Below, in pieces: positions 1 through 7,686 of a stretch of 7,686 nucleotides of DNA. Both the position numbers and the translations under genes were made by a program. Each line of letters begins with the position of its first letter. Position 1 is the first letter of the stretch. This stretch comes from a virus. Lineage: Duplodnaviria; Heunggongvirae; Uroviricota; Caudoviricetes. The notes below the pieces were generated by a model, which searched no databases, was not told the origin of the DNA, and saw nothing but the letters and a program-made list of their open reading frames with translations. The stretch lies in the IMG/VR virus record IMGVR_UViG_2740892258_000007, one strand, 5' to 3'.

Positions 1-1
1 G

Positions 2-85
2 GCATTTGAAGAGATGTATGGCTCCCAGCTGGAGCTGATATTTCGTTTTATCGATCATGCGCTGGCAATAGGCGTACTGGCGTAA
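2..85 (+). CDS. 3' end of an upstream gene (partial, C-terminal ~27 codons, ...SQLELIFRFIDHALAIGVLA-stop)
   Basis: Open frame running in from the window edge to TAA at 83-85; 13 bp before the SD/ATG of the next gene. No family recognised. Confidence 0.3.
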   Translation, partial: AFEEMYGSQLELIFRFIDHALAIGVLA

Positions 86-98
86 GTGGAGAACGAGC

Positions 99-851
99 AT
101 GAACCTTGAAGCCTTACCAAAATATTACTCCCCAAAATCTCCAAAATTGAGCGATGACGCACCGGCGACAGGCTCAGGTGGTTTAACGATTACGGATGTG
201 ATGGCTGCGCAGGGGATGGTGCAGTCGAAAGCACCGCTTGGGTTTGCCTTATTCCTGGCAAAAGTTGGTGTTCAGGATCCTCAGTTTGCGATTGAAGGTC
301 TGCTCAATTACGCGATGGCAATGGATAACCCGACATTGAACAAATTGAGTGAAGAAACCCGGTTACAGATCATCCCTTACCTTGTGAGTTTTGCCTTTGC
401 TGATTATTCCAGGTCTGCGGCAAGTAAGGCTCGCTGTGAGCATTGTGCTGGTACTGGATTTCATAGTGTATTGCGCGAAGTGGTGAAACACTCCAGAAGC
501 GGGGAATCTGTTATCAAGGAAGAGTGGGTGAAGGAATTATGTCAGCATTGCCATGGTAAGGGAGAAGTCAGCACGGCTTGCAGAGGGTGTAAGGGTAAAG
601 GCATTGTCCTGGATGAAAAAAGAACCCGGCTTCATGGCGCGCCTGTTTATAAGATTTGTGGGCGTTGCAATGGAAACCGGTTTAGTCGTTTACCGACCAC
701 ACTGGCACGACGTCATGTCCAGAAGCTGGTACCAGACCTGACTGATTATCAGTGGTACAAAGGATATGCAGACGTCATTGATAAACTGGTAACAAAGTGC
801 TGGCAGGAAGAAGCATTCGCTGAAGCACAATTGAGAAAGGTGACGAGATAA
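99..851 (+). CDS. Q: Late-gene antitermination protein Q (250 aa, QuuQ-like as recalled) with four CxxCxGxG zinc-finger repeats
   Basis: GGAG 8 nt upstream of ATG 99. Four repeats CEHCAGTG, CQHCHGKG, CRGCKGKG, CGRCNGNR. Sits immediately upstream of a promoter plus intrinsic terminator (883-989) followed by morons and lysis genes, the canonical Q/pR'/tR' layout. N-terminus MNLEALPKYYSPKSPKLSDD matches my recollection of E. coli prophage Q homologs; not search-verified. Confidence 0.65.
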   Translation: MNLEALPKYYSPKSPKLSDDAPATGSGGLTITDVMAAQGMVQSKAPLGFALFLAKVGVQDPQFAIEGLLNYAMAMDNPTLNKLSEETRLQIIPYLVSFAFADYSRSAASKARCEHCAGTGFHSVLREVVKHSRSGESVIKEEWVKELCQHCHGKGEVSTACRGCKGKGIVLDEKRTRLHGAPVYKICGRCNGNRFSRLPTTLARRHVQKLVPDLTDYQWYKGYADVIDKLVTKCWQEEAFAEAQLRKVTR

Positions 852-882
852 GTGATTTTCACCGAAGATGGCGACATGATGC

Positions 883-911
883 TTGCATTTCTCAAAAAAT
901 ATGGATAAGAT
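883..911 (+). promoter_or_regulatory. pR'-like late promoter candidate (-35 TTGCAT 883-888, 17-bp spacer, -10 TAAGAT 906-911)
   Basis: Sigma70-like hexamers with 17-bp spacing, 30 bp after the Q stop and about 45 bp before a strong intrinsic terminator, as expected for pR' with its Q-utilisation region. Confidence 0.4.
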
Positions 912-957
912 TTTCCCAACGATGGGCTTTGTATGTCTACCGTTGATGAGTCCAAGA

Positions 958-989
958 ACCCGCCGCCGAGCGGGTTAAATTATTTTTTC
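958..989 (+). terminator. tR'-like intrinsic terminator
   Basis: Stem aacccgc (958-964) / gcgggtt (971-977), loop cgccga, followed by aaattatttttt. Confidence 0.6.
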
Positions 990-1005
990 TTACACGGGGA
1001 TATGG

Positions 1006-1536
1006 ATGTTATACCGAGATCTTTTGCCTATTTTCTCAGAAAGACCCATATTTAAAGCTCCTGAGGCTGAAAGAATACTTCGTGAGCAATATTCTATCGC
1101 CGCCCCCACTCCTGTAATTCAGGAGATTTATTATGGATTGGCAGGTTATGACAGATTTCAGGAGCTTTATGGGGATCTTAATATTGACCAAATCGAATGG
1201 AAATTGATTGAACTTCCCACTAAAAATTTTTTAACTATCGGGGATAATGCTACTTACCCTGATTTTTTGCATGAGGTCGTTGAAGATTTCACAACCCGTA
1301 AAGGCGATGTATTTATGGATGATGAAATAAAAGCGCATTGGTGTAATTTTGGCACATGGTGTGAACCTCCATTTTTTATAGATCGAGCTTTGCTGAAAAG
1401 TAATACAACAGGGCTTCATTTAATGGAAGGGCATACAAGAGTTGGAACCCTGTTAGGGGCAGTTAAGTATAACTTCGTTAAGCTTGCTAATACTCATAAA
1501 ATTTATTATGCGCAAGCAAAAGAATGTATTAAATAA
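1006..1536 (+). CDS. Hypothetical 176-aa protein, AT-rich moron; possible ParB/Srx-like fold (weak)
   Basis: GGGGA 5 nt before ATG 1006; uninterrupted ORF; clearly more AT-rich than the flanking Q and methyltransferase genes; followed by an intrinsic terminator. Segment PPFFID...TGLHLMEGHTRVGTLLGAV loosely resembles the strand-DGHxR-helix core of ParB/sulfiredoxin domains. Confidence 0.55.
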   Translation: MLYRDLLPIFSERPIFKAPEAERILREQYSIAAPTPVIQEIYYGLAGYDRFQELYGDLNIDQIEWKLIELPTKNFLTIGDNATYPDFLHEVVEDFTTRKGDVFMDDEIKAHWCNFGTWCEPPFFIDRALLKSNTTGLHLMEGHTRVGTLLGAVKYNFVKLANTHKIYYAQAKECIK

Positions 1537-1572
1537 GTTGAGTGAAATTACTGTTTTTTTTTAACAATACTT

Positions 1573-1595
1573 ACCGCGTTCTCGCGGTTTTTTTA
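1573..1595 (+). terminator. Intrinsic terminator after the 176-aa ORF
   Basis: accgcg (1573-1578) / cgcggt (1583-1588), loop ttct, then a run of 7 T. Confidence 0.6.
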
Positions 1596-1717
1596 TAAAT
1601 TAAACATTGGTGCAGTACGGTAAACACGCTGGTGGTCGTGAATACTGACTTTTTATCTTGCTGGCTTTTTAGACAAGAGTTATTGGTATGTCATGTTAAC
1701 CATGAAGGTAAAAAGAC

Positions 1718-1912
1718 ATGCTAAAACAGCAAGATATGACAGAAACGGCGAAAGTTGTTTTTAATGAATTAAACGGCAAACCGGCAACAGTCGGGGAGAT
1801 AGCACAAAACACATACCTTTCACGCGAACGCTGTCAGTTAATACTGACCCAGCTGGTTATGGCGGGGCTGGCAGATTACCAGTTCGGCTGTTACAGACGC
1901 CTTCAGCAATGA
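1718..1912 (+). CDS. Small winged-helix DNA-binding protein, PapI/FaeA-like (64 aa)
   Basis: Pattern ...NELNGKPATVGEIAQNTYLSRERCQLILTQLVMAGLADY aligns by eye with the PapI core (...[32 protein letters not shown]...). Size typical of the family. AAGG about 10 nt upstream of the ATG. Confidence 0.45.
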   Translation: MLKQQDMTETAKVVFNELNGKPATVGEIAQNTYLSRERCQLILTQLVMAGLADYQFGCYRRLQQ

Positions 1913-2061
1913 AGGGCTTTTAATTTGTGAAAATGGGCGGCTGGTGGGTGTTGGTAGCACCTGCCAGCCATTCGCTCATGCTTACTGGTCACAAGCGAAC
2001 CATGGCCCACTGCTTTAGCGCAAAAGCAGAGTGAGCCTACCAGAGTTACGCTTACTGATCC

Positions 2062-3123
2062 ATGAAAAACACTGTAAAAATAAACAGTATTGATTTAATC
2101 AACGCTGATTGCCTGCATTTTATTCAGTCCCTGCCTGATGATTCCATTGACCTGATTGTTACCGATCCGCCTTACTTCAAGGTGAAACCCAACGGTTGGG
2201 ACAATCAGTGGAAAGGGGACGAAGATTACCTTAAGTGGCTGGACCACTGTCTGGCCCAGTTCTGGCGGGTGTTGAAACCTGCCGGAAGCCTTTACCTGTT
2301 CTGTGGGCATCGCCTGGCATCTGATATTGAGATCATGATGCGTGAACGTTTCAACGTGCTTAACCATATCATCTGGGCGAAGCCGTCCGGACGTTGGAAT
2401 GGGTGTAATAAAGAAAGTCTGCGCGCATATTTTCCTGCCACAGAGCGCGTTCTGTTTGCTGAACATTACCGGGGGCCATATCGCGGCAAAAGTGACGGCT
2501 ATGTGGCAAAAGAAAGGGAACTCAAACAGCACATAATGGCACCGCTGATATCGTATTTCAGGGATGCTCGTGCCGAACTGGGTATAACGGCAAAACAAAT
2601 TGCCGAAGCCACAGGTAAGAAAAATATGGTTTCCCACTGGTTTGGTGCCAGTCAGTGGCAGTTGCCGAATGAGGCTGACTACCGGAAGTTACAGGCACTG
2701 TTTTCCCGTATAGCGGCAGAGAAGTTTCAGGAACAACAACTGGAACAACCACACCACCAGTTGGTGGCATCTTATGATTCACTGAATCGCAAATATTCTG
2801 AATTGCTGGATGAGTTTAAATCTCTCCGGCGCTATTTCTCCGTATCAGTCTCCGTGCCTTATACCGATGTCTGGATGCATAAACCCGTTCAGTTCTACCC
2901 GGGTAAACATCCGTGTGAGAAACCGGCGGATATGCTCAGGCAAATAATCAATGCCAGTAGTCGACCCGGCGATCTGGTTGCTGATTTCTTTATGGGATCC
3001 GGTTCCACAATAAAAGCAGCAATGGCGCTGGGGCGTCGGGCGTTAGGTGTTGAGCTTGAGACAGAGCGGTTTAATCAGACCATCCAGGAAATCAGTATGT
3101 TATCAGCAAATACAATTTTGTGA
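2062..3123 (+). CDS. Orphan DNA methyltransferase, beta-class N6-adenine/N4-cytosine family (DPPY motif, probably N6-adenine), 353 aa
   Basis: Motif IV DPPY near the N-terminus (LIVTDPPYF) and AdoMet motif I near the C-terminus (DFFMGSGST), the circular permutation typical of beta-class enzymes. No restriction endonuclease partner in the window. Weak SD. Confidence 0.85.
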   Translation: MKNTVKINSIDLINADCLHFIQSLPDDSIDLIVTDPPYFKVKPNGWDNQWKGDEDYLKWLDHCLAQFWRVLKPAGSLYLFCGHRLASDIEIMMRERFNVLNHIIWAKPSGRWNGCNKESLRAYFPATERVLFAEHYRGPYRGKSDGYVAKERELKQHIMAPLISYFRDARAELGITAKQIAEATGKKNMVSHWFGASQWQLPNEADYRKLQALFSRIAAEKFQEQQLEQPHHQLVASYDSLNRKYSELLDEFKSLRRYFSVSVSVPYTDVWMHKPVQFYPGKHPCEKPADMLRQIINASSRPGDLVADFFMGSGSTIKAAMALGRRALGVELETERFNQTIQEISMLSANTIL

Positions 3124-3365
3124 ATTAATTCAATTATTGGTGGGATGTCTGTGCCGTATAATGATTACAGATACAGTGTATCCTGCAATGCAGCAGGGCT
3201 GATGTGGTGGGTTGTACATAGCCTGCAAAGGATTGGCTTCATTAATTCATCGTTGATACAAGCGAGTCACGGTTGACCACGCCAACGGCTCATCGGTAAA
3301 AATCCGACACCGTGTCTTCTTAACTCACTTATTGTTTCCACCCATGTTTTTGGATACCTGCTGTA

Positions 3366-3404
3366 GCTGTCAGATTAGCGCGATAATCTGACAGCTTTTT
3401 TTTT
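3366..3404 (+). terminator. Strong intrinsic terminator
   Basis: 11-bp perfect stem gctgtcagatt (3366-3376) / aatctgacagc (3385-3395), loop agcgcgat, followed by 9 T. Confidence 0.65.
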
Positions 3405-3565
3405 ACAACGAATCCTTCTGATCTGCTTTTGCGGGGCTTTTTTGTATCCGCTCCATGCCCGGCGTATAAGCGGAGGTTGGTCAGTTTTCTAAAAATTGAA
3501 ATACCTCACAATTCAGCCAGTTAATGGTTGTTTGTCTGGCGAAGAGTTTGTAAATAAAAAAACGC

Positions 3566-3720
3566 ATGGTGAATCCCCCTAAGCGGCGGGGCGAATCAGC
3601 AGTCAGTTCTGGGATAATCGCGGGTTCGTATGCTGATGCCGGACTCACCGGGAGGCACCCGGCACCATGCATCATGGTCATCCCCTTGTATGATACCCCT
3701 CTCCGGAGGGGTATTTTTTG
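3566..3720 (+). ncRNA. Candidate structured small RNA (~155 nt) ending at an intrinsic terminator
   Basis: GC-rich block with no credible ORF. Long-range closing stem gcatggtg (3564-3571) / caccatgc (3665-3672); internal hairpin ccggg-aggca-cccgg; terminator with 9-bp stem atacccctc (3693-3701) / gaggggtat (3706-3714) plus T5. Weak promoter candidate upstream (-35 TTGTCT 3532-3537, -10 TAAAAA 3555-3560). Confidence 0.3.
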
Positions 3721-3721
3721 G

Positions 3722-3790
3722 ATAAAAAAGCCCGCGCTGGGAGGCACGGGCGGCAAGGAATAAAACGTGAAGAAATTTTCACAGGCGCAT
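3722..3790 (-). ncRNA. Candidate short minus-strand transcript (~60 nt) with its own intrinsic terminator
   Basis: On the minus strand: -35 TTGCAA, 18-bp spacer, -10 TATTAT (reverse complement of about 3786-3820), then hairpin gtgaa/ttcac (3776-3791), then terminator hairpin gcccg...cgggc (3730-3754) followed by 6 U (forward A-run 3724-3729). It lies back-to-back with the plus-strand terminator at 3693-3720. Confidence 0.25.
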
Positions 3791-3988
3791 AATAATCCGA
3801 TGTTGCCAGATTTTGCAACTGCATCATCTGGTTATTATGTGAGCTGGAAAATCAGATTCTGTATGGACTGAAGCCATGCTGTTATTTAGGGCCAAAGAGC
3901 TGGCTTTTTCCCGCCTTCTCTCCAGTAACGATTAATGAGAAAAGAATGAAATGCTTTTCCTGGGGAGGAGGGCAGTAGAAAAAAGAAC

Positions 3989-4043
3989 CCGCCAGCAAAA
4001 ATATGGGGGATGAACAGCTTTTGCTACTCAGGTTGCTGGCGGG
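3989..4043. repeat. 11-bp perfect inverted repeat with an internal competing repeat (possible alternative hairpins)
   Basis: cccgccagcaa (3989-3999) pairs with ttgctggcggg (4033-4043); the loop contains ttttgct (4017-4023), which can alternatively pair with agcaaaa (3995-4001). Confidence 0.4.
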
Positions 4044-4151
4044 TATGGTTCTTCATGAAATAAGAATGTTACGCGGTATTTTTAATGAAAATGATAATTA
4101 TTGTCAATTGGTTGTGCGTATTTTTTCATACATGACTGGTAAAGGTGATTC

Positions 4152-4187
4152 AGGCCATCAGAGTTTTGCTGATGGCCTTTTTTCTTT
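4152..4187 (+). terminator. Intrinsic terminator about 30 nt upstream of the pinholin start
   Basis: 10-bp stem aggccatcag (4152-4161) / ctgatggcct (4169-4178), loop agttttg, T-run 4178-4183. Confidence 0.55.
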
Positions 4188-4216
4188 CCGGTAGCACAGG
4201 TCTGTTGGGGCGGGAT

Positions 4217-4432
4217 ATGTATCAGATGGAAAAAATATCAACAGGCATTGCCTACGGCACCTCCGCAGGCAGTGCTGGCTACTGGTTTTTACAATGGCTT
4301 GATCAGGTTAGTCCGTCTCAGTGGGCTGCGATTGGTGTACTGGGAAGTCTGGTTCTGGGCTTTCTGACTTATCTGACGAATCTGTACTTCAAAATCAGAG
4401 AAGACAGAAGAAAGGCTGCGAGAGGAGAGTAA
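4217..4432 (+). CDS. S: Pinholin, phage 21 S21 family (71 aa, dual-start MYQMEK)
   Basis: Translation [71 protein letters not shown] is near-identical to S21 as I recall it. Two transmembrane domains, charged C-terminus, Met1/Met4 dual start. The longer listed ORF 4145-4432 is an upstream extension across the terminator hairpin and is not the real start. Confidence 0.85.
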
Positions 4433-4436
4433 TATA

Positions 4437-4781
4437 ATGGTCCAAAACTATGAAATGATTGTGAAAGGGATCCGCAATTTTGAGAATAAAGTTACGGTAA
4501 CTTTAGCATTACAGGACAAAGAACGCTTTGACGGTGAAATTTTTGACCTGGACATCTCGCTGGACCGTGTTGAAGGTGCCGCGCTGGAGTTTTATGAGGC
4601 AGCAGCCAGAAGGAGCATCAGACAGGTCTTCCTGGATGTTGCTGCCGGGTTATGTGGAGGGGATGAGCAGTCGCCGGAAAAGCGCCCCATAATTTTAGAG
4701 GCGCAGAGTGTGTGGATAACCTACAAAGGAAAACTGCCGGGAAGAATTACTGGTTCACTGAAGACTCCGCCGAAATGGTAA
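4437..4781 (+). CDS. orfA, hypothetical 114-aa acidic soluble protein in the slot normally occupied by the endolysin
   Basis: SD GAGGAGAG inside the 3' end of S, 7 nt before ATG 4437, so translationally coupled to the pinholin. A second copy (5356-5612) differs at about 12 nt with only 3 amino-acid changes, indicating purifying selection. No family recognised. Confidence 0.6.
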   Translation: MVQNYEMIVKGIRNFENKVTVTLALQDKERFDGEIFDLDISLDRVEGAALEFYEAAARRSIRQVFLDVAAGLCGGDEQSPEKRPIILEAQSVWITYKGKLPGRITGSLKTPPKW

Positions 4782-5019
4782 TTTCACCAGCATATTTTTC
4801 CTCCAGTAATACCGCCAGCCACTTGAAAGAATTTTGTTGTTGCTGGGACCATTTGGGATTGATTGATTCAAGCTGGAGCGATGCCAGTGTTGGTTGCATT
4901 TGTTCCTTGGGAATTGAGAATGCCAGATATGAAAATGCGACAGCAAGGGCATTTACATCATCCCGAAGCCTGGAAATGCAGTCGAGCAACTCCTGTAGAG
5001 AAATGGTGCTATTGTCCAT
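4747..5019 (-). CDS. orfB, hypothetical 90-aa protein, convergent with and 3'-overlapping orfA by 35 bp
   Basis: Minus-strand ATG at 5019-5017 preceded by AGAGAGGA with 7-nt spacing; an intact paralogue with the same RBS at 5578-5850. Helical-looking N-terminus (MDNSTISLQELLDCISRLRDDVNAL). The ORF track's 92-aa version starts at an upstream TTG; ATG is preferred. Confidence 0.45.
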   Translation of the reverse strand: MDNSTISLQELLDCISRLRDDVNALAVAFSYLAFSIPKEQMQPTLASLQLESINPKWSQQQQNSFKWLAVLLEEKYAGEITISAESSVNQ

Positions 5020-5124
5020 AAACAATCCTCTCTATTGTATTTAACTATTCCTTGCCTGATTCAACAGGCCGGGACAGATAAACATATCCAGGGTTCAGAA
5101 ACCGATAAATCCTGATAAATATCC

Positions 5125-5355
5125 ATGAACGCAAAAATCAGATACAGCCTGTCGGCTACTGTACTAGTGCTGATTGGTGCAGGCGCGTCTGCTCCTCAAA
5201 TACTTGACCAGTTTCTGGACGAAAAAGAAGGTAACCACACAACGGCATACCGTGATGGTTCCGGCATCTGGACCATCTGTCGGGGTGCCACGATGGTGGA
5301 TGGAAAACCCGTTTTTCCCGGTATGAAACTGTCGAAGGAAAAATGCGACCAGGTC
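5125..5355 (+). pseudogene. Endolysin 5' fragment R' (first 77 codons: SAR domain and E-D-T catalytic region), then out of frame into the orfA copy
   Basis: Codons 1-77 match the R N-terminus (5 amino-acid differences); after KCDQV the frame runs into orfA-derived sequence, giving a 55-aa junk tail and a stop at 5521-5523. Confidence 0.75.
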
Positions 5356-5612
5356 GCTTTGACGGTGAAATTTTTGACCTGGACATCTCGCTGGACCGTG
5401 TTGAAGGTGCTGCGCTGGAGTTTTATGAGGCAGCGGCCAGAAGGAGCATCAGACAGGTCTTCCTGGATGTCGCTGCCGGGTTATGTGAAGGGGATGAGCA
5501 GTCGCCGGAAAAGCGCCCCGTAATTTTAGAGGCGCAGAATGTATGGATAACCTACAAAGGAAAGCTACCGGGAAGGATTACTGGTTCCCTGAAGACTCCG
5601 CCGAAATGGTAG
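5343..5612 (+). CDS. orfA second copy, lacking the first 29 codons; possible re-initiation at a fortuitous ATG 5343 (AAGGA 5 nt upstream, within the R' fragment)
   Basis: In-frame homolog of orfA residues 30-114 with 3 amino-acid changes (G to E, I to V, S to N) and about 8 synonymous changes. Whether it is expressed is unknown. Confidence 0.35.
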   Translation: MRPGRFDGEIFDLDISLDRVEGAALEFYEAAARRSIRQVFLDVAAGLCEGDEQSPEKRPVILEAQNVWITYKGKLPGRITGSLKTPPKW

Positions 5613-6186
5613 TTTTGCCAGCATAATTTTCTTCCAGCAATGCCGCCAGCCACTTGAAAGAATTTTGTTGTTCCTGGGACCATTTGGGGTTGCGTGATTC
5701 AAAATGAATGGATGCCAGCGTTGGCAGCATTTGCTCCCTGGGAATTGATAAGGCCAGATGTGAAAATGCAACAGTGAGGGCATTTACATCATCCCGAAGC
5801 CTGGAAATGCAGTCGAGCAACTCCTGTAGAGAAATGGTGCTATTGTCCATAAATAATCCTCTTGATTGTCTTTACCTTTTCCCCGCCTGATTCAACAGGC
5901 CGGGACAGATAAACATATCCAGGGTTCAGAAACCGATAAATCCTGATAAATATCCATGAACGCAAAAATCAAATACGGCCTGTCAGCTGCAGTTCTGGCG
6001 CTGATTGGAGCAGGCGCATCAGCTCCTCAGATACTTGACCAGTTTCTGGATGAAAAAGAGGGTAACCACACTACGGCATACCGCGATGGTTCCGGCAACT
6101 GGACCATCTGTCGGGGGGCCACGATGGTGGATGGAAAACCCGTTTTTCCCGGTATGAAACTGTCGAAGGAAAAATGCGACCAGGTC
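5356..6186. repeat. Tandem duplication, copy 2 (831 bp)
   Basis: See copy 1; ends inside the intact endolysin gene at codon 77. Confidence 0.85.
5578..5850 (-). CDS. orfB second copy (90 aa), about 15 amino-acid differences from copy 1, concentrated in the middle and C-terminal half
   Basis: Intact ORF with conserved RBS AGAGGA and ATG at 5850-5848; N-terminal 25 residues identical to copy 1. Confidence 0.45.
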   Translation of the reverse strand: MDNSTISLQELLDCISRLRDDVNALTVAFSHLALSIPREQMLPTLASIHFESRNPKWSQEQQNSFKWLAALLEENYAGKTTISAESSGNQ

Positions 6187-6489
6187 AACGCCATTGAGCG
6201 TGATAAGGCGCTGGCATGGGTGGAGAAAAACATCAAAGTGCCATTGAGCGAACCCCAGAAAGCGGGGATCGCGTCATTCTGTCCGTACAACATTGGTCCC
6301 GGTAAGTGTTTCCCGTCGACGTTTTATAAACGAATTAATGCAGGTGATCGCAGGGGAGCGTGTGAGGCGATTCGCTGGTGGATTAAGGACGGTGGCAGAG
6401 ACTGCCGTATTCGTTCAAACAACTGCTACGGTCAGGTATCCCGTCGTGACCAGGAGAGCGCGCTGGCGTGCTGGGGTATCGACAGATAA
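5956..6489 (+). CDS. R: SAR endolysin (phage lysozyme with N-terminal signal-anchor-release domain), 177 aa
   Basis: Weakly hydrophobic Gly/Ala-rich N-terminus LSAAVLALIGAGASAP; catalytic triad spacing E-x8-D-x5-T in EGNHTTAYRDGSGNWT. Pinholin plus SAR endolysin is the established phage 21-type pairing. No SD before the ATG. Confidence 0.85.
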   Translation: MNAKIKYGLSAAVLALIGAGASAPQILDQFLDEKEGNHTTAYRDGSGNWTICRGATMVDGKPVFPGMKLSKEKCDQVNAIERDKALAWVEKNIKVPLSEPQKAGIASFCPYNIGPGKCFPSTFYKRINAGDRRGACEAIRWWIKDGGRDCRIRSNNCYGQVSRRDQESALACWGIDR

Positions 6490-6581
6490 GCAGAATATTT
6501 TGCTGAAAAATAAGGCATGGCCACGCGGGCGGATAACATGAAATCCTGCGAAGTGGCGAAACGTAAGTGAATAAAAGTAAA

Positions 6582-6620
6582 AACCCCGTTTGTTGGCACC
6601 AAGCGGGGTTTTGTGTTTCC
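6582..6620 (+). terminator. Intrinsic terminator downstream of the endolysin
   Basis: Stem aaccccg (6582-6588) / cggggtt (6604-6610) with possible inner extension, followed by ttttgtgttt; A-run on the 5' side so it may act bidirectionally. Confidence 0.5.
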
Positions 6621-6648
6621 TGACTCCGGAAAAGTCAAAGGAGAAAGT

Positions 6649-6786
6649 GTGTTTGATTTTAGCAAACTGATTCGGGAGATTCGAGTGATGGCTGAAAAAT
6701 TATCCACCTGGAAGTTCATTCTTATCTGGCTGGTGTTTGTGATTATGGCCTCTGGTTATTTCATCGGTCAGATACGCTGGTGGTGA
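6649..6786 (+). CDS. Small single-pass membrane protein (45 aa from GTG 6649, or 32 aa from ATG 6688), stop 1 nt before the Rz start
   Basis: AGGAG (6638-6642) 6 nt before GTG 6649; hydrophobic core [20 protein letters not shown]; TGA 6784-6786 then ATG 6788 of Rz, a coupled arrangement. Below the ORF-track size cutoff. Confidence 0.35.
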
Positions 6787-6787
6787 A

Positions 6788-6976
6788 ATGAACCGCGTAC
6801 TGTGCGTGGTCATCATTGCCCTGCTGGTGGCCTGTGGTGCGCTTAGTCTGGGGCTGAATCATTACCGTGATAACGCCATTACCTACAAAGCCCAGCGCGA
6901 CAAAAATGTCAGAGAACTGAAGCTGGCGAACGCGGCAATTACTGACATGCAGATGCGTCAGCGTGGAATGAAATAA
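6788..6976 (+). pseudogene. Rz: Truncated i-spanin Rz (62 codons; lambda-type Rz is about 150 aa); no embedded Rz1
   Basis: [59 protein letters not shown] closely matches the lambda Rz N-terminus as recalled, then diverges to GMK-stop. Downstream frames show no Rz or Rz1-like continuation. Confidence 0.7.
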
Positions 6977-7104
6977 ACCGGTCTATCCGTCCATTACCCT
7001 TTTAGCTGCGCTGTATCGTCGCCGTATTCCCGCATTAACCATGACCGTAGCCCGACGGGGAATTCCTTCTGCGTGAGTGTGCGGGAATAATTAAAAACGA
7101 TGCA

Positions 7105-7149
7105 CACCGGGTTTTTACCGCGTTAATGATTCGCGGATTTATCCCGGTG
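7105..7149. repeat. Nested palindrome (outer caccggg/cccggtg, inner ccgcg/cgcgg)
   Basis: caccggg (7105-7111) ... ccgcg (7118-7122) ttaatgatt cgcgg (7132-7136) ... cccggtg (7143-7149). A further 9-bp inverted repeat tattcccgc (7025-7033) / gcgggaata (7081-7089) lies upstream. Confidence 0.4.
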
Positions 7150-7306
7150 CGATGGTGGAAGAAACCGGAAGCTGTATTACAGAAAGTGCTACTACTGTAT
7201 CCCGATGCGATGTATGTAATGTGAGTCAGATAATGGCACAGGATGTGGTGATGTGGCAGTCTGGAACACAGGATATATTGTCAGAATAAGACCCGTAGGA
7301 ATAAAA

Positions 7307-7633
7307 ATGAAAAGACGCCTTTTACTACTTTTTCTGTTATCTGTCCTAGCAGTGGGATGCTCGCAGCAAAAAGCTGATGAGCCCCGGCAATTAGTGACGG
7401 TGTATCCACGATATCCGGAATATGCTGCAGCAAATTATATCAAGGGGCTGGTTGAGGTTAAGTTCGATATTGGTGCTGATGGGACTGTGACACGGATCGT
7501 TTTTCTCCGCTCAGAGCCTCATAATTTGTTTCGTGATGAAGTGGTGAAGGCCATGGCGAAATGGCGATTTGAAAAGAATCGTCCCTGTCAGGGAGTGAAG
7601 CGACAATTTATCTTTACGCCGTCACGTCCCTGA
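7307..7633 (+). CDS. Lipoprotein with a TonB C-terminal-like domain (108 aa)
   Basis: AGGA about 7 nt before ATG 7307; signal peptide MKRRLLLLFLLSVLAVGC with a lipobox-like LAVGC and Ser at +2; mature part YPEYAAANYIKGLVEVKFDIGADGTVTRIVFLRSEPHNLFRDEVVKAMAKWRFE aligns position by position with the E. coli TonB C-terminal domain ([54 protein letters not shown]). The listed ORF start at 7253 is an upstream extension. Confidence 0.7.
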   Translation: MKRRLLLLFLLSVLAVGCSQQKADEPRQLVTVYPRYPEYAAANYIKGLVEVKFDIGADGTVTRIVFLRSEPHNLFRDEVVKAMAKWRFEKNRPCQGVKRQFIFTPSRP

Positions 7634-7686
7634 TGCTTCCAGGTAGAGAGGGGCTGGAAGCAGGAGAAAAATGAAAGAGCCAGCGG

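Follow-up and report, generated by a model that had tools for sequence, protein, structure and literature searches.

Adjacent diverged copies of a lysis-cassette segment in an Escherichia coli prophage contig match two prophage lineages and were probably joined during assembly

Introduction

The window, by which we mean the whole stretch of DNA analysed, is the complete 7,686-bp contig CVOH01000017.1 of the short-read draft assembly GCA_001245225.1, and its content is the late region of a lambdoid prophage of Escherichia coli. A segment of its lysis genes occurs twice in direct succession, and the two copies differ. A preliminary description, made from the sequence alone, read this as mosaic divergence in which one gene (orfA) is conserved and a second, antisense gene (orfB) is heavily substituted. 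It proposed either recombination between alleles from different phages or diversifying selection on orfB, as for a specificity or immunity determinant. The locus therefore raises the question of where the two copies come from, and whether they lie side by side in any phage.

Lambdoid phage genomes are mosaic through both homologous and illegitimate recombination (Hendrix, Juhala, Casjens and colleagues). Diverged neighbouring copies are also known as products of assembly. In false 'heterotype' duplications, two diverged versions of a region are assembled as separate contigs and become neighbours on one scaffold (Ko et al. 2022, Genome Biol 23:205, PMC9516828). They are then read as duplication or gene gain, and each copy carries its own single-copy k-mers (PMC9516828).

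Composition and gene content of the window

DNA comparison with prophage loci divided the window into three end-to-end blocks, type A at 1-5354 (piece 1), type B at 5355-6965 and type A again at 6966-7686 (piece 3). The features are as follows.

99-851: antiterminator Q
Between Q and the DNA methyltransferase: two hypothetical genes
2062-3123: DNA methyltransferase
Within piece 1 (1-5354): STnc100
4217-4432, plus strand: class II (phage 21 type) holin, 71 aa (Pfam PF04971 Phage_holin_2_1, E = 2.6e-35)
4437-4781, plus strand: ydfR/DUF1327 (orfA), full length, type A allele (PF07041, E = 1.9e-42; phrog_406)
4747-5019, minus strand: orfB, type A allele, 90 aa (phrog_2411, E = 1.6e-58)
5125-5354, plus strand: endolysin 5' fragment, type A, codons 1-77, ending at the left joint
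5343-5612, plus strand: truncated 'ydfR ORF, 89 aa, from ydfR codon 30 (PF07041 profile positions 29-92 only)
5578-5850, minus strand: orfB, type B allele, 90 aa (phrog_2411, E = 5.5e-55)
5956-6489, plus strand: full-length endolysin, type B, a phage lysozyme with hydrophobic N-terminus (PF00959, E = 4.1e-24, residues 33-167; phrog_7)
6788-6976, plus strand: Rz spanin gene, interrupted at the right joint after codon 59, 62-aa ORF
7307-7633, plus strand: TonB-family gene, in piece 3 after intergenic DNA

The full-length ydfR scored 143.9 bits against PF07041, for which the cutoff is 25, and belongs to that family. In RefSeq its homologues are named 'YdfR family protein', and the holin homologues in the matching loci are annotated 'class II holin family protein'. 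The type A orfB is convergent with ydfR, and the two genes overlap by 35 nt. Several of the ORFs were shaped by the joints between blocks. The type A endolysin fragment, whose match to PF00959 is limited to residues 33-77, continues out of frame to 5523 as a 132-aa chimeric ORF, and the 89-aa 'ydfR ORF, which was predicted by the gene caller, takes its start ATG from the endolysin fragment. At the position of the cut Rz gene, homologous loci have PF03245 genes of 153-154 aa. The lysis cassette of the contig includes a holin (PF04971) and an endolysin (PF00959), with Rz truncated at codon 59 and Rz1 absent; the parental type A and type B loci each have a complete holin-endolysin-Rz/Rz1 set.

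The gene order follows that of a phage 21-type cassette (class II holin S21, SAR endolysin R21, Rz/Rz1) with a ydfR insert, which we take to be the arrangement of essQ-ydfR-rrrQ in the Qin prophage of K-12. A PF04971 holin, DUF1327/YdfR, a lysozyme with a hydrophobic N-terminus and Rz occur in the same order, and the RefSeq names of the homologues include rrrQ and YdfR. Unlike the Qin-type cassette, the contig has truncated forms of the endolysin, ydfR and Rz genes, and Rz1 and iss are missing. In addition, orfB (phrog_2411), which has no described function, lies antisense between ydfR and the endolysin gene R.

Differences between the two copies

The repeat is direct and ungapped and extends over 831 nt (4524-5354 versus 5355-6185), with 64 mismatches (92.3% identity). 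A codon-aware count agreed closely with the preliminary figures. Codons 30-114 of ydfR, for which about 12 nucleotide and 3 amino-acid differences had been reported, differ at 11 of 255 nt (12 when the stop codon is included) and at 3 amino acids, giving a dN/dS of 0.11. The orfB copies on the minus strand (4750-5019 versus 5581-5850), estimated earlier at 25-30 nt and about 15 changes in 90 residues, differ at 28 nt and 15 of 90 amino acids, with a dN/dS of 0.36. Endolysin codons 1-76 carry 18 nucleotide and 5 amino-acid differences (dN/dS 0.10), and four of the five amino-acid changes fall within the N-terminal hydrophobic (SAR) segment, where the description had placed most of them.

The orfB changes had also been called mostly nonsynonymous. 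This held for the raw counts (16 nonsynonymous versus 12 synonymous) but not per site, where pN was 0.077 and pS 0.195. Amino-acid-level divergence of orfB was five times that of the adjacent ydfR segment (pN 0.077 versus 0.015). Nonsynonymous divergence was unequal among ydfR, orfB and the endolysin gene (p = 0.007), and silent divergence was homogeneous over the three genes (pS 0.13, 0.23 and 0.24; p = 0.29).

Three identical runs interrupt the substitutions: 4946-5022 (77 nt), which covers orfB codons 1-25; 5054-5140 (87 nt), which is composed of the 71 nt upstream of R and the first 16 nt of R; and 5287-5354 (68 nt). The first two correspond to the identical orfB N-terminus and the identical stretch upstream of the endolysin gene that had been noticed before. 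Three such runs, none shorter than 68 nt, exceed the chance expectation (permutation, P ~0.0003).

Assignment of the copies to two prophage lineages

Positions 1-5354 are 100% identical over 5354 nt to IHE3034 (NC_017628.1, 570927-576281) and to at least six other complete genomes, and they are 100% identical to the type A loci L002, L003, L005 and L006 across the overlap. The first repeat unit (4524-5354) is accordingly 100% identical to these four loci and 92.3% identical to type B loci. The second unit (5355-6185) shows the reverse pattern, with 100% identity to loci L009, L011, L012 and L013 and 92.3% to type A loci. Type B identity runs on for 780 nt past the end of the repeat, and the block 5355-6965 (1,611 nt) is 100% identical to UTI89, PMV-1, NU14 and at least 57 other genomes. 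It contains 'ydfR from codon 30, orfB, the full endolysin gene and the first 59 codons of Rz. The remainder of the window, 6966-7686, is 99.86% identical to type A locus L002 (1439-719), and 6966-7300 is 100% identical in strain N21. The switch from A to B coincides exactly with the repeat junction.

The type A lineage is iss-bearing, with Bor/Iss and TonB genes downstream, and the type B lineage has DUF1398 and Nu1 genes downstream. The exact type A orfB protein was single-copy in 2151 collection blocks and the exact type B protein in 9727; both were found in standard cassettes (holin, ydfR, orfB, endolysin, Rz) in different prophage backgrounds. PMV-1 harbours both lineages ~840 kb apart, with type A lying at 0.575 Mb and type B at 1.417 Mb, and in this related genome each copy is therefore a separate locus, as is expected if a duplication is false.

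Because each copy is 100% identical to a separate lineage, the 64 differences predate the adjacency of the copies. Judged from these sequence comparisons, the differences are allelic variation between two prophage lineages and not the product of evolution after duplication. The suggestion of alleles from different phages was right in substance, copy 1 representing one widespread lineage and copy 2 another.

A tandem duplication in place, followed by divergence in which selection diversified orfB as a determinant of specificity or immunity, would agree with the fivefold greater amino-acid divergence of orfB over the ydfR segment and with the variety of orfB in the population, where 27 DNA alleles encode 25 different proteins. 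We regard it as highly improbable. It calls for divergence after copying at one locus, and what was found instead were two single-copy lineages, with identity to each extending far past the repeat. The estimates of selection given below also speak against it.

The two joints

The blocks meet at two positions.

5354/5355: left joint, codon 77 of the type A endolysin gene abutting codon 30 of type B ydfR; blunt, +831 nt out of register
6965/6966: right joint, codon 59/60 of type B Rz abutting type A intergenic DNA; blunt, -749 nt out of register

At the right joint, type A sequence resumes 140 nt past the 5' end of iss. No microhomology was present at either joint. Strain N21 has 1,226 nt between pieces 1 and 3, comprising the endolysin 3' end, Rz/Rz1 and iss, and it is these 1,226 nt of type A DNA that the contig lacks.

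The left joint had no counterpart in 5,426 complete E. coli genomes, in the GTDB representatives, in IMG/VR or in JGI metagenomes, and no match spanning the right joint was found in the 5,426 complete E. coli genomes, GTDB species representatives or IMG/VR. The searches of the complete E. coli genomes used 60-nt queries and a stricter E-value. A genuine duplication would be expected to show its junction in independent genomes, and none in the collections searched did so. On exact look-up among 153 billion gene positions, the 62-aa and 89-aa junction ORFs were each found in one record only, CVOH01000017.1, and the 132-aa chimeric endolysin ORF matched no record.

Block boundaries and k-mers

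Across the region, types A and B have exact runs of 124, 77, 87, 68 and 272 nt in common. The type B block starts inside the 124-nt run, 56 nt before the first A/B-distinguishing base (5411), and ends inside the 272-nt run, 56 nt past the last such base (6909). Spans of type B-specific k-mers match both block ends at k = 57 only. Since the block ends k-1 bases into both flanking repeats, it has the extent expected of a node in a de Bruijn graph, with k inferred to be 57. Its ends track the bases that distinguish A from B, which real breakpoints would have no biological reason to do. Within the type B block the internal shared repeats (68-87 nt) were threaded through, and the two longest (124 and 272 nt) were not.

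Piece 1 crosses the 124-nt shared run unbroken, so the assembler resolved that repeat along the type A path. It stops at the last base of the 68-nt shared run, which is an A/B branch point (T versus C). For both the type B block and the end of piece 1, the edges coincide with those expected of graph nodes, as in a false duplication. All 57-mers of window positions 1554-7600 are present in PMV-1 prophage A, prophage B or both, with the exception of those that span the joints (55 novel 57-mers at the left joint and 56 at the right).

A/B k-mers do not account for position 6966 as the start of piece 3, and no repeat boundary was found at the expected place near 6966 in other prophages, where partial matches either stop 22 nt short of the joint or begin only at 7007. 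The first divergence of locus L001 is at 7023, 57 nt into piece 3, as compared with 56 expected.

Assembly artefact or real rearrangement

The assembled sequence leads us to conclude, with a probability of roughly 85%, that the tandem arrangement is an artefact of the assembler, the scaffolder or gap closure, which joined two co-resident prophages. In the mechanism that we propose, the type B node would lie between the longest two of the exact A/B repeats (124 and 272 nt), and the scaffolder would drop this node into a gap of ~1.2 kb between two type A contigs. Because type B sequence enters the cassette 831 nt ahead of the point at which type A ends, an apparent tandem duplication of 831 nt at 92% identity would result. 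We infer that the cell itself has no such joints. The premise of the preliminary description, that both copies are adjacent in one phage, is then probably false, as the joints resemble assembly node boundaries.

Alternatively, a 1.6-kb type B piece may have been inserted into a type A prophage by two illegitimate joins, replacing the endolysin 3' end, Rz/Rz1 and iss and creating a partial tandem duplication ydfR-orfB-R'. Both parental sequences do co-reside in genomes such as PMV-1, and three points count against an artefact: the contig is continuous, with no run of Ns at either joint, piece 1 crosses the 124-nt shared run without interruption, and the k-mer model leaves the start of piece 3 at 6966 unaccounted for. 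However, such an insertion requires two independent blunt joins without microhomology, and the insert would have to end by coincidence exactly k-1 = 56 nt past the outermost A/B-distinguishing bases on both sides. The joints were seen in no other genome or collection searched, and natural A/B recombinants, of which L001 is an example, are in register and single-copy. We therefore consider a real arrangement unlikely. It is a little less likely still that the joints are real in the sense that the cassette of this strain holds a 1.6-kb block from a second prophage, with two orfB alleles adjacent and Rz truncated. If this were true, the retained second allele might hint at an allele-specific role of orfB, for example in lysis control or phage-phage interference.

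If the joints were made in assembly, the window would be the bacterial-paralogue counterpart of false heterotype duplications. As in the cases described (PMC9516828), two diverged versions are involved, here 92% identical, and each has specific 57-mers. Unlike those cases, which concern the haplotypes of diploids, the versions here are paralogous prophages of a haploid bacterium. The window also has no gap between the copies, and they were compared by sequence rather than by read depth or discordant pairs (as in PMC9516828).

A diverged tandem copy with a fast-evolving gene, when met in a short draft contig from an E. coli strain with multiple prophages, can consist of paralogous prophages stitched together in series, and to infer selection or neofunctionalisation from such a contig would mislead. 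A cheap check that can be reused elsewhere is to match the copies to single-copy lineages and to test whether the block ends lie k-1 bases inside exact repeats.

Selection and mosaicism in the population

Together, 93 loci and the two copies in the window gave 27 orfB DNA alleles. Across these alleles the dN/dS of orfB was 0.32-0.33, similar to the 0.36 of the copy pair. In orfB, dN was significantly lower than dS (p = 0.005). Variable sites clustered at third codon positions (13, 15 and 32 sites at positions 1, 2 and 3). Diversifying selection, which would give a gene-wide dN/dS above 1, was therefore not borne out either for the pair or for the alleles, and orfB is under weak purifying selection (~0.3), being less constrained than its neighbours but not diversifying.

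The population dN/dS was 0.35 for full-length ydfR and 0.08 for the endolysin gene, from alleles extracted by fixed offsets from orfB, a few of which may be mis-extracted where the spacing differs. Strong purifying selection (dN/dS ~0.1) acts on the C-terminal part of ydfR and on the endolysin gene. As a whole, ydfR is no better conserved than orfB (0.35 versus 0.33), so the contrast of a conserved orfA with a substituted orfB reflects which segment is compared rather than the genes themselves, and it fails population-wide. A dN/dS in full-length ydfR as low as that of orfB, together with the low dN/dS and third-position clustering in orfB itself, also argues against duplication followed by diversifying selection.

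Recombination among alleles, the other process that had been suggested, is pervasive. The 831-nt unit has 43 haplotypes, in which A-like and B-like blocks alternate, with an Rmin of at least 28. Locus L001 is a natural A/B hybrid, its core being type B and its flanks type A, in register and in single copy. This block-wise switching of ydfR-orfB-R alleles, in-register hybrids included, is like that of lambdoid mosaics; allele mosaicism is real and is ordinary lambdoid recombination. The joints of the window differ from these natural mosaics in being out of register and unique. The identical patches between the two copies are consistent with frequent homologous exchange between lambdoid phages, and constraint on the endolysin start region may be an added cause.

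Evidence for orfB as a gene

The orfB region had been described as open in a plus-strand frame in both copies, which left the coding strand in question. The plus-strand frame is open in copy 1 (4712-5044, 110 codons), as stated, but in copy 2 it is interrupted by TAA at 5624-5626 and TGA at 5705-5707, and it is not conserved, with stops in 14 of the 27 natural alleles. In 26 of 27 alleles no internal stop breaks the minus frame, whose length is constant at 90 codons apart from two alleles that lose just the last one. The apparent dN/dS of the plus-strand frame is 0.30. That this frame is sometimes open and has a similarly low dN/dS is explained by the third codon positions that it has in common with orfB.

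The evidence favours orfB as a real minus-strand gene. The protein covers profile positions 1-90 of the 90 in phrog_2411, making it a full-length member, and it is annotated as a CDS in RefSeq. An AlphaFold model (pLDDT 79.6) predicts three helices at residues 8-35, 38-52 and 59-77. We think it improbable that orfB is not a gene and that the region is non-coding or coding on the plus strand. Such a reading would fit the long open plus frame of copy 1 with its equally low apparent dN/dS, and also two null results. The protein matched no Pfam family, and a promoter and terminator scan of 4400-6200 found sites no commoner than in shuffled sequence and none upstream of orfB. Set against it are the stop-free minus frame of conserved length, the interruption of the plus frame in about half of the alleles, copy 2 included, the PHROG family and RefSeq annotation, the confident three-helix model, and remote homologues that keep the motif pattern.

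None of the results points to a role of orfB in specificity or immunity. A Foldseek search of PDB and BFVD gave no fold match below E = 0.5, the genomic neighbourhoods of remote homologues gave no pointer to function, and nothing useful was found in the literature on YdfR/DUF1327. The biology that remains is modest, orfB being a small, narrowly distributed and weakly constrained antisense gene. Homologues with at least 71% identity were limited to Escherichia, Shigella and E. albertii. Beyond these, a few remote relatives, 81-97 aa long, with 30-38% identity and the same motif pattern, came from an exhaustive HMMER search; one of them adjoins a terminase gene, and one lies in a non-phage context.

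Block boundaries

Recombination between type A and type B, two E. coli prophage lineages, has a natural example in locus L001, listed here.

NZ_CP082083.1, strain MS20654, 5338-6560: natural in-register hybrid (L001).

The flanks of this locus resemble type A at 97-98% identity, and its core, comprising ydfR, orfB and the endolysin gene, is type B at 99%; according to the RefSeq annotation, the lysozyme is frameshifted. L001 illustrates how genuine A x B recombination appears. The final type A block of the window starts (6966) 57 nt ahead of the cluster of differences in L001 (7023, 7027, 7030, onward), and this offset is 1 base away from the k-1 = 56 expected for a de Bruijn graph node at k = 57. 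This boundary might have been set by a third related prophage of the source genome.

At the left joint, most likely one of assembly, a truncated gene was called as follows.

5343-5612, plus strand: truncated 'ydfR ORF, reported by the gene caller as an 89-aa DUF1327 protein.

The start ATG of this ORF is taken from within the endolysin fragment, with AAGGA just 3 nt 5' of the borrowed ATG (both motifs within 5331-5345), and the annotated 89-aa protein is a consequence of the joint. Nearer the start of the window, those 57-mers between 359 and 816 that are absent from PMV-1, which carries both lineages, are explained by its Q antiterminator, frameshifted and split by annotation; the gene is uninterrupted in both the window and IHE3034, a genome with a type A prophage.

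orfB alleles and remote relatives

The convergent orfB and ydfR genes share their 3' ends in both copies.

4747-4781 and 5578-5612, opposite strands: 35-nt 3'-end overlap of orfB and ydfR.

Within the overlap the final 11 codons of each gene are read from opposite strands, and two A/B differences were found there. The length of orfB was invariant at 90 codons apart from three alleles at IMG/VR loci: the L060 reading frame is interrupted at codon 35 by a stop, and those of L059 and L068 lack the last codon only. A relative with 38% identity, P0064 (Logan contigs L095/L096, 3001-3267), is likewise encoded opposite to the adjoining phage late genes, in a position upstream of terminase and two small ORFs. 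The relative P0070 (30% identity) has chromosomal surroundings in GCA_016865525.2 (L097), where obvious phage genes were absent.

Stretch between the methyltransferase and holin genes

One small RNA was identified in the window.

3535-3723, plus strand: STnc100 sRNA (Rfam RF02076, full-length match, 114.5 bits, E = 3e-25).

The sRNA sequence occupies part of a gene-poor stretch of ~1 kb, with the methyltransferase on one side and the holin on the other. No tRNA genes were found in this stretch of the window, whereas the type B prophage of PMV-1 carries tRNA-Ile/Arg/Arg at the equivalent place.
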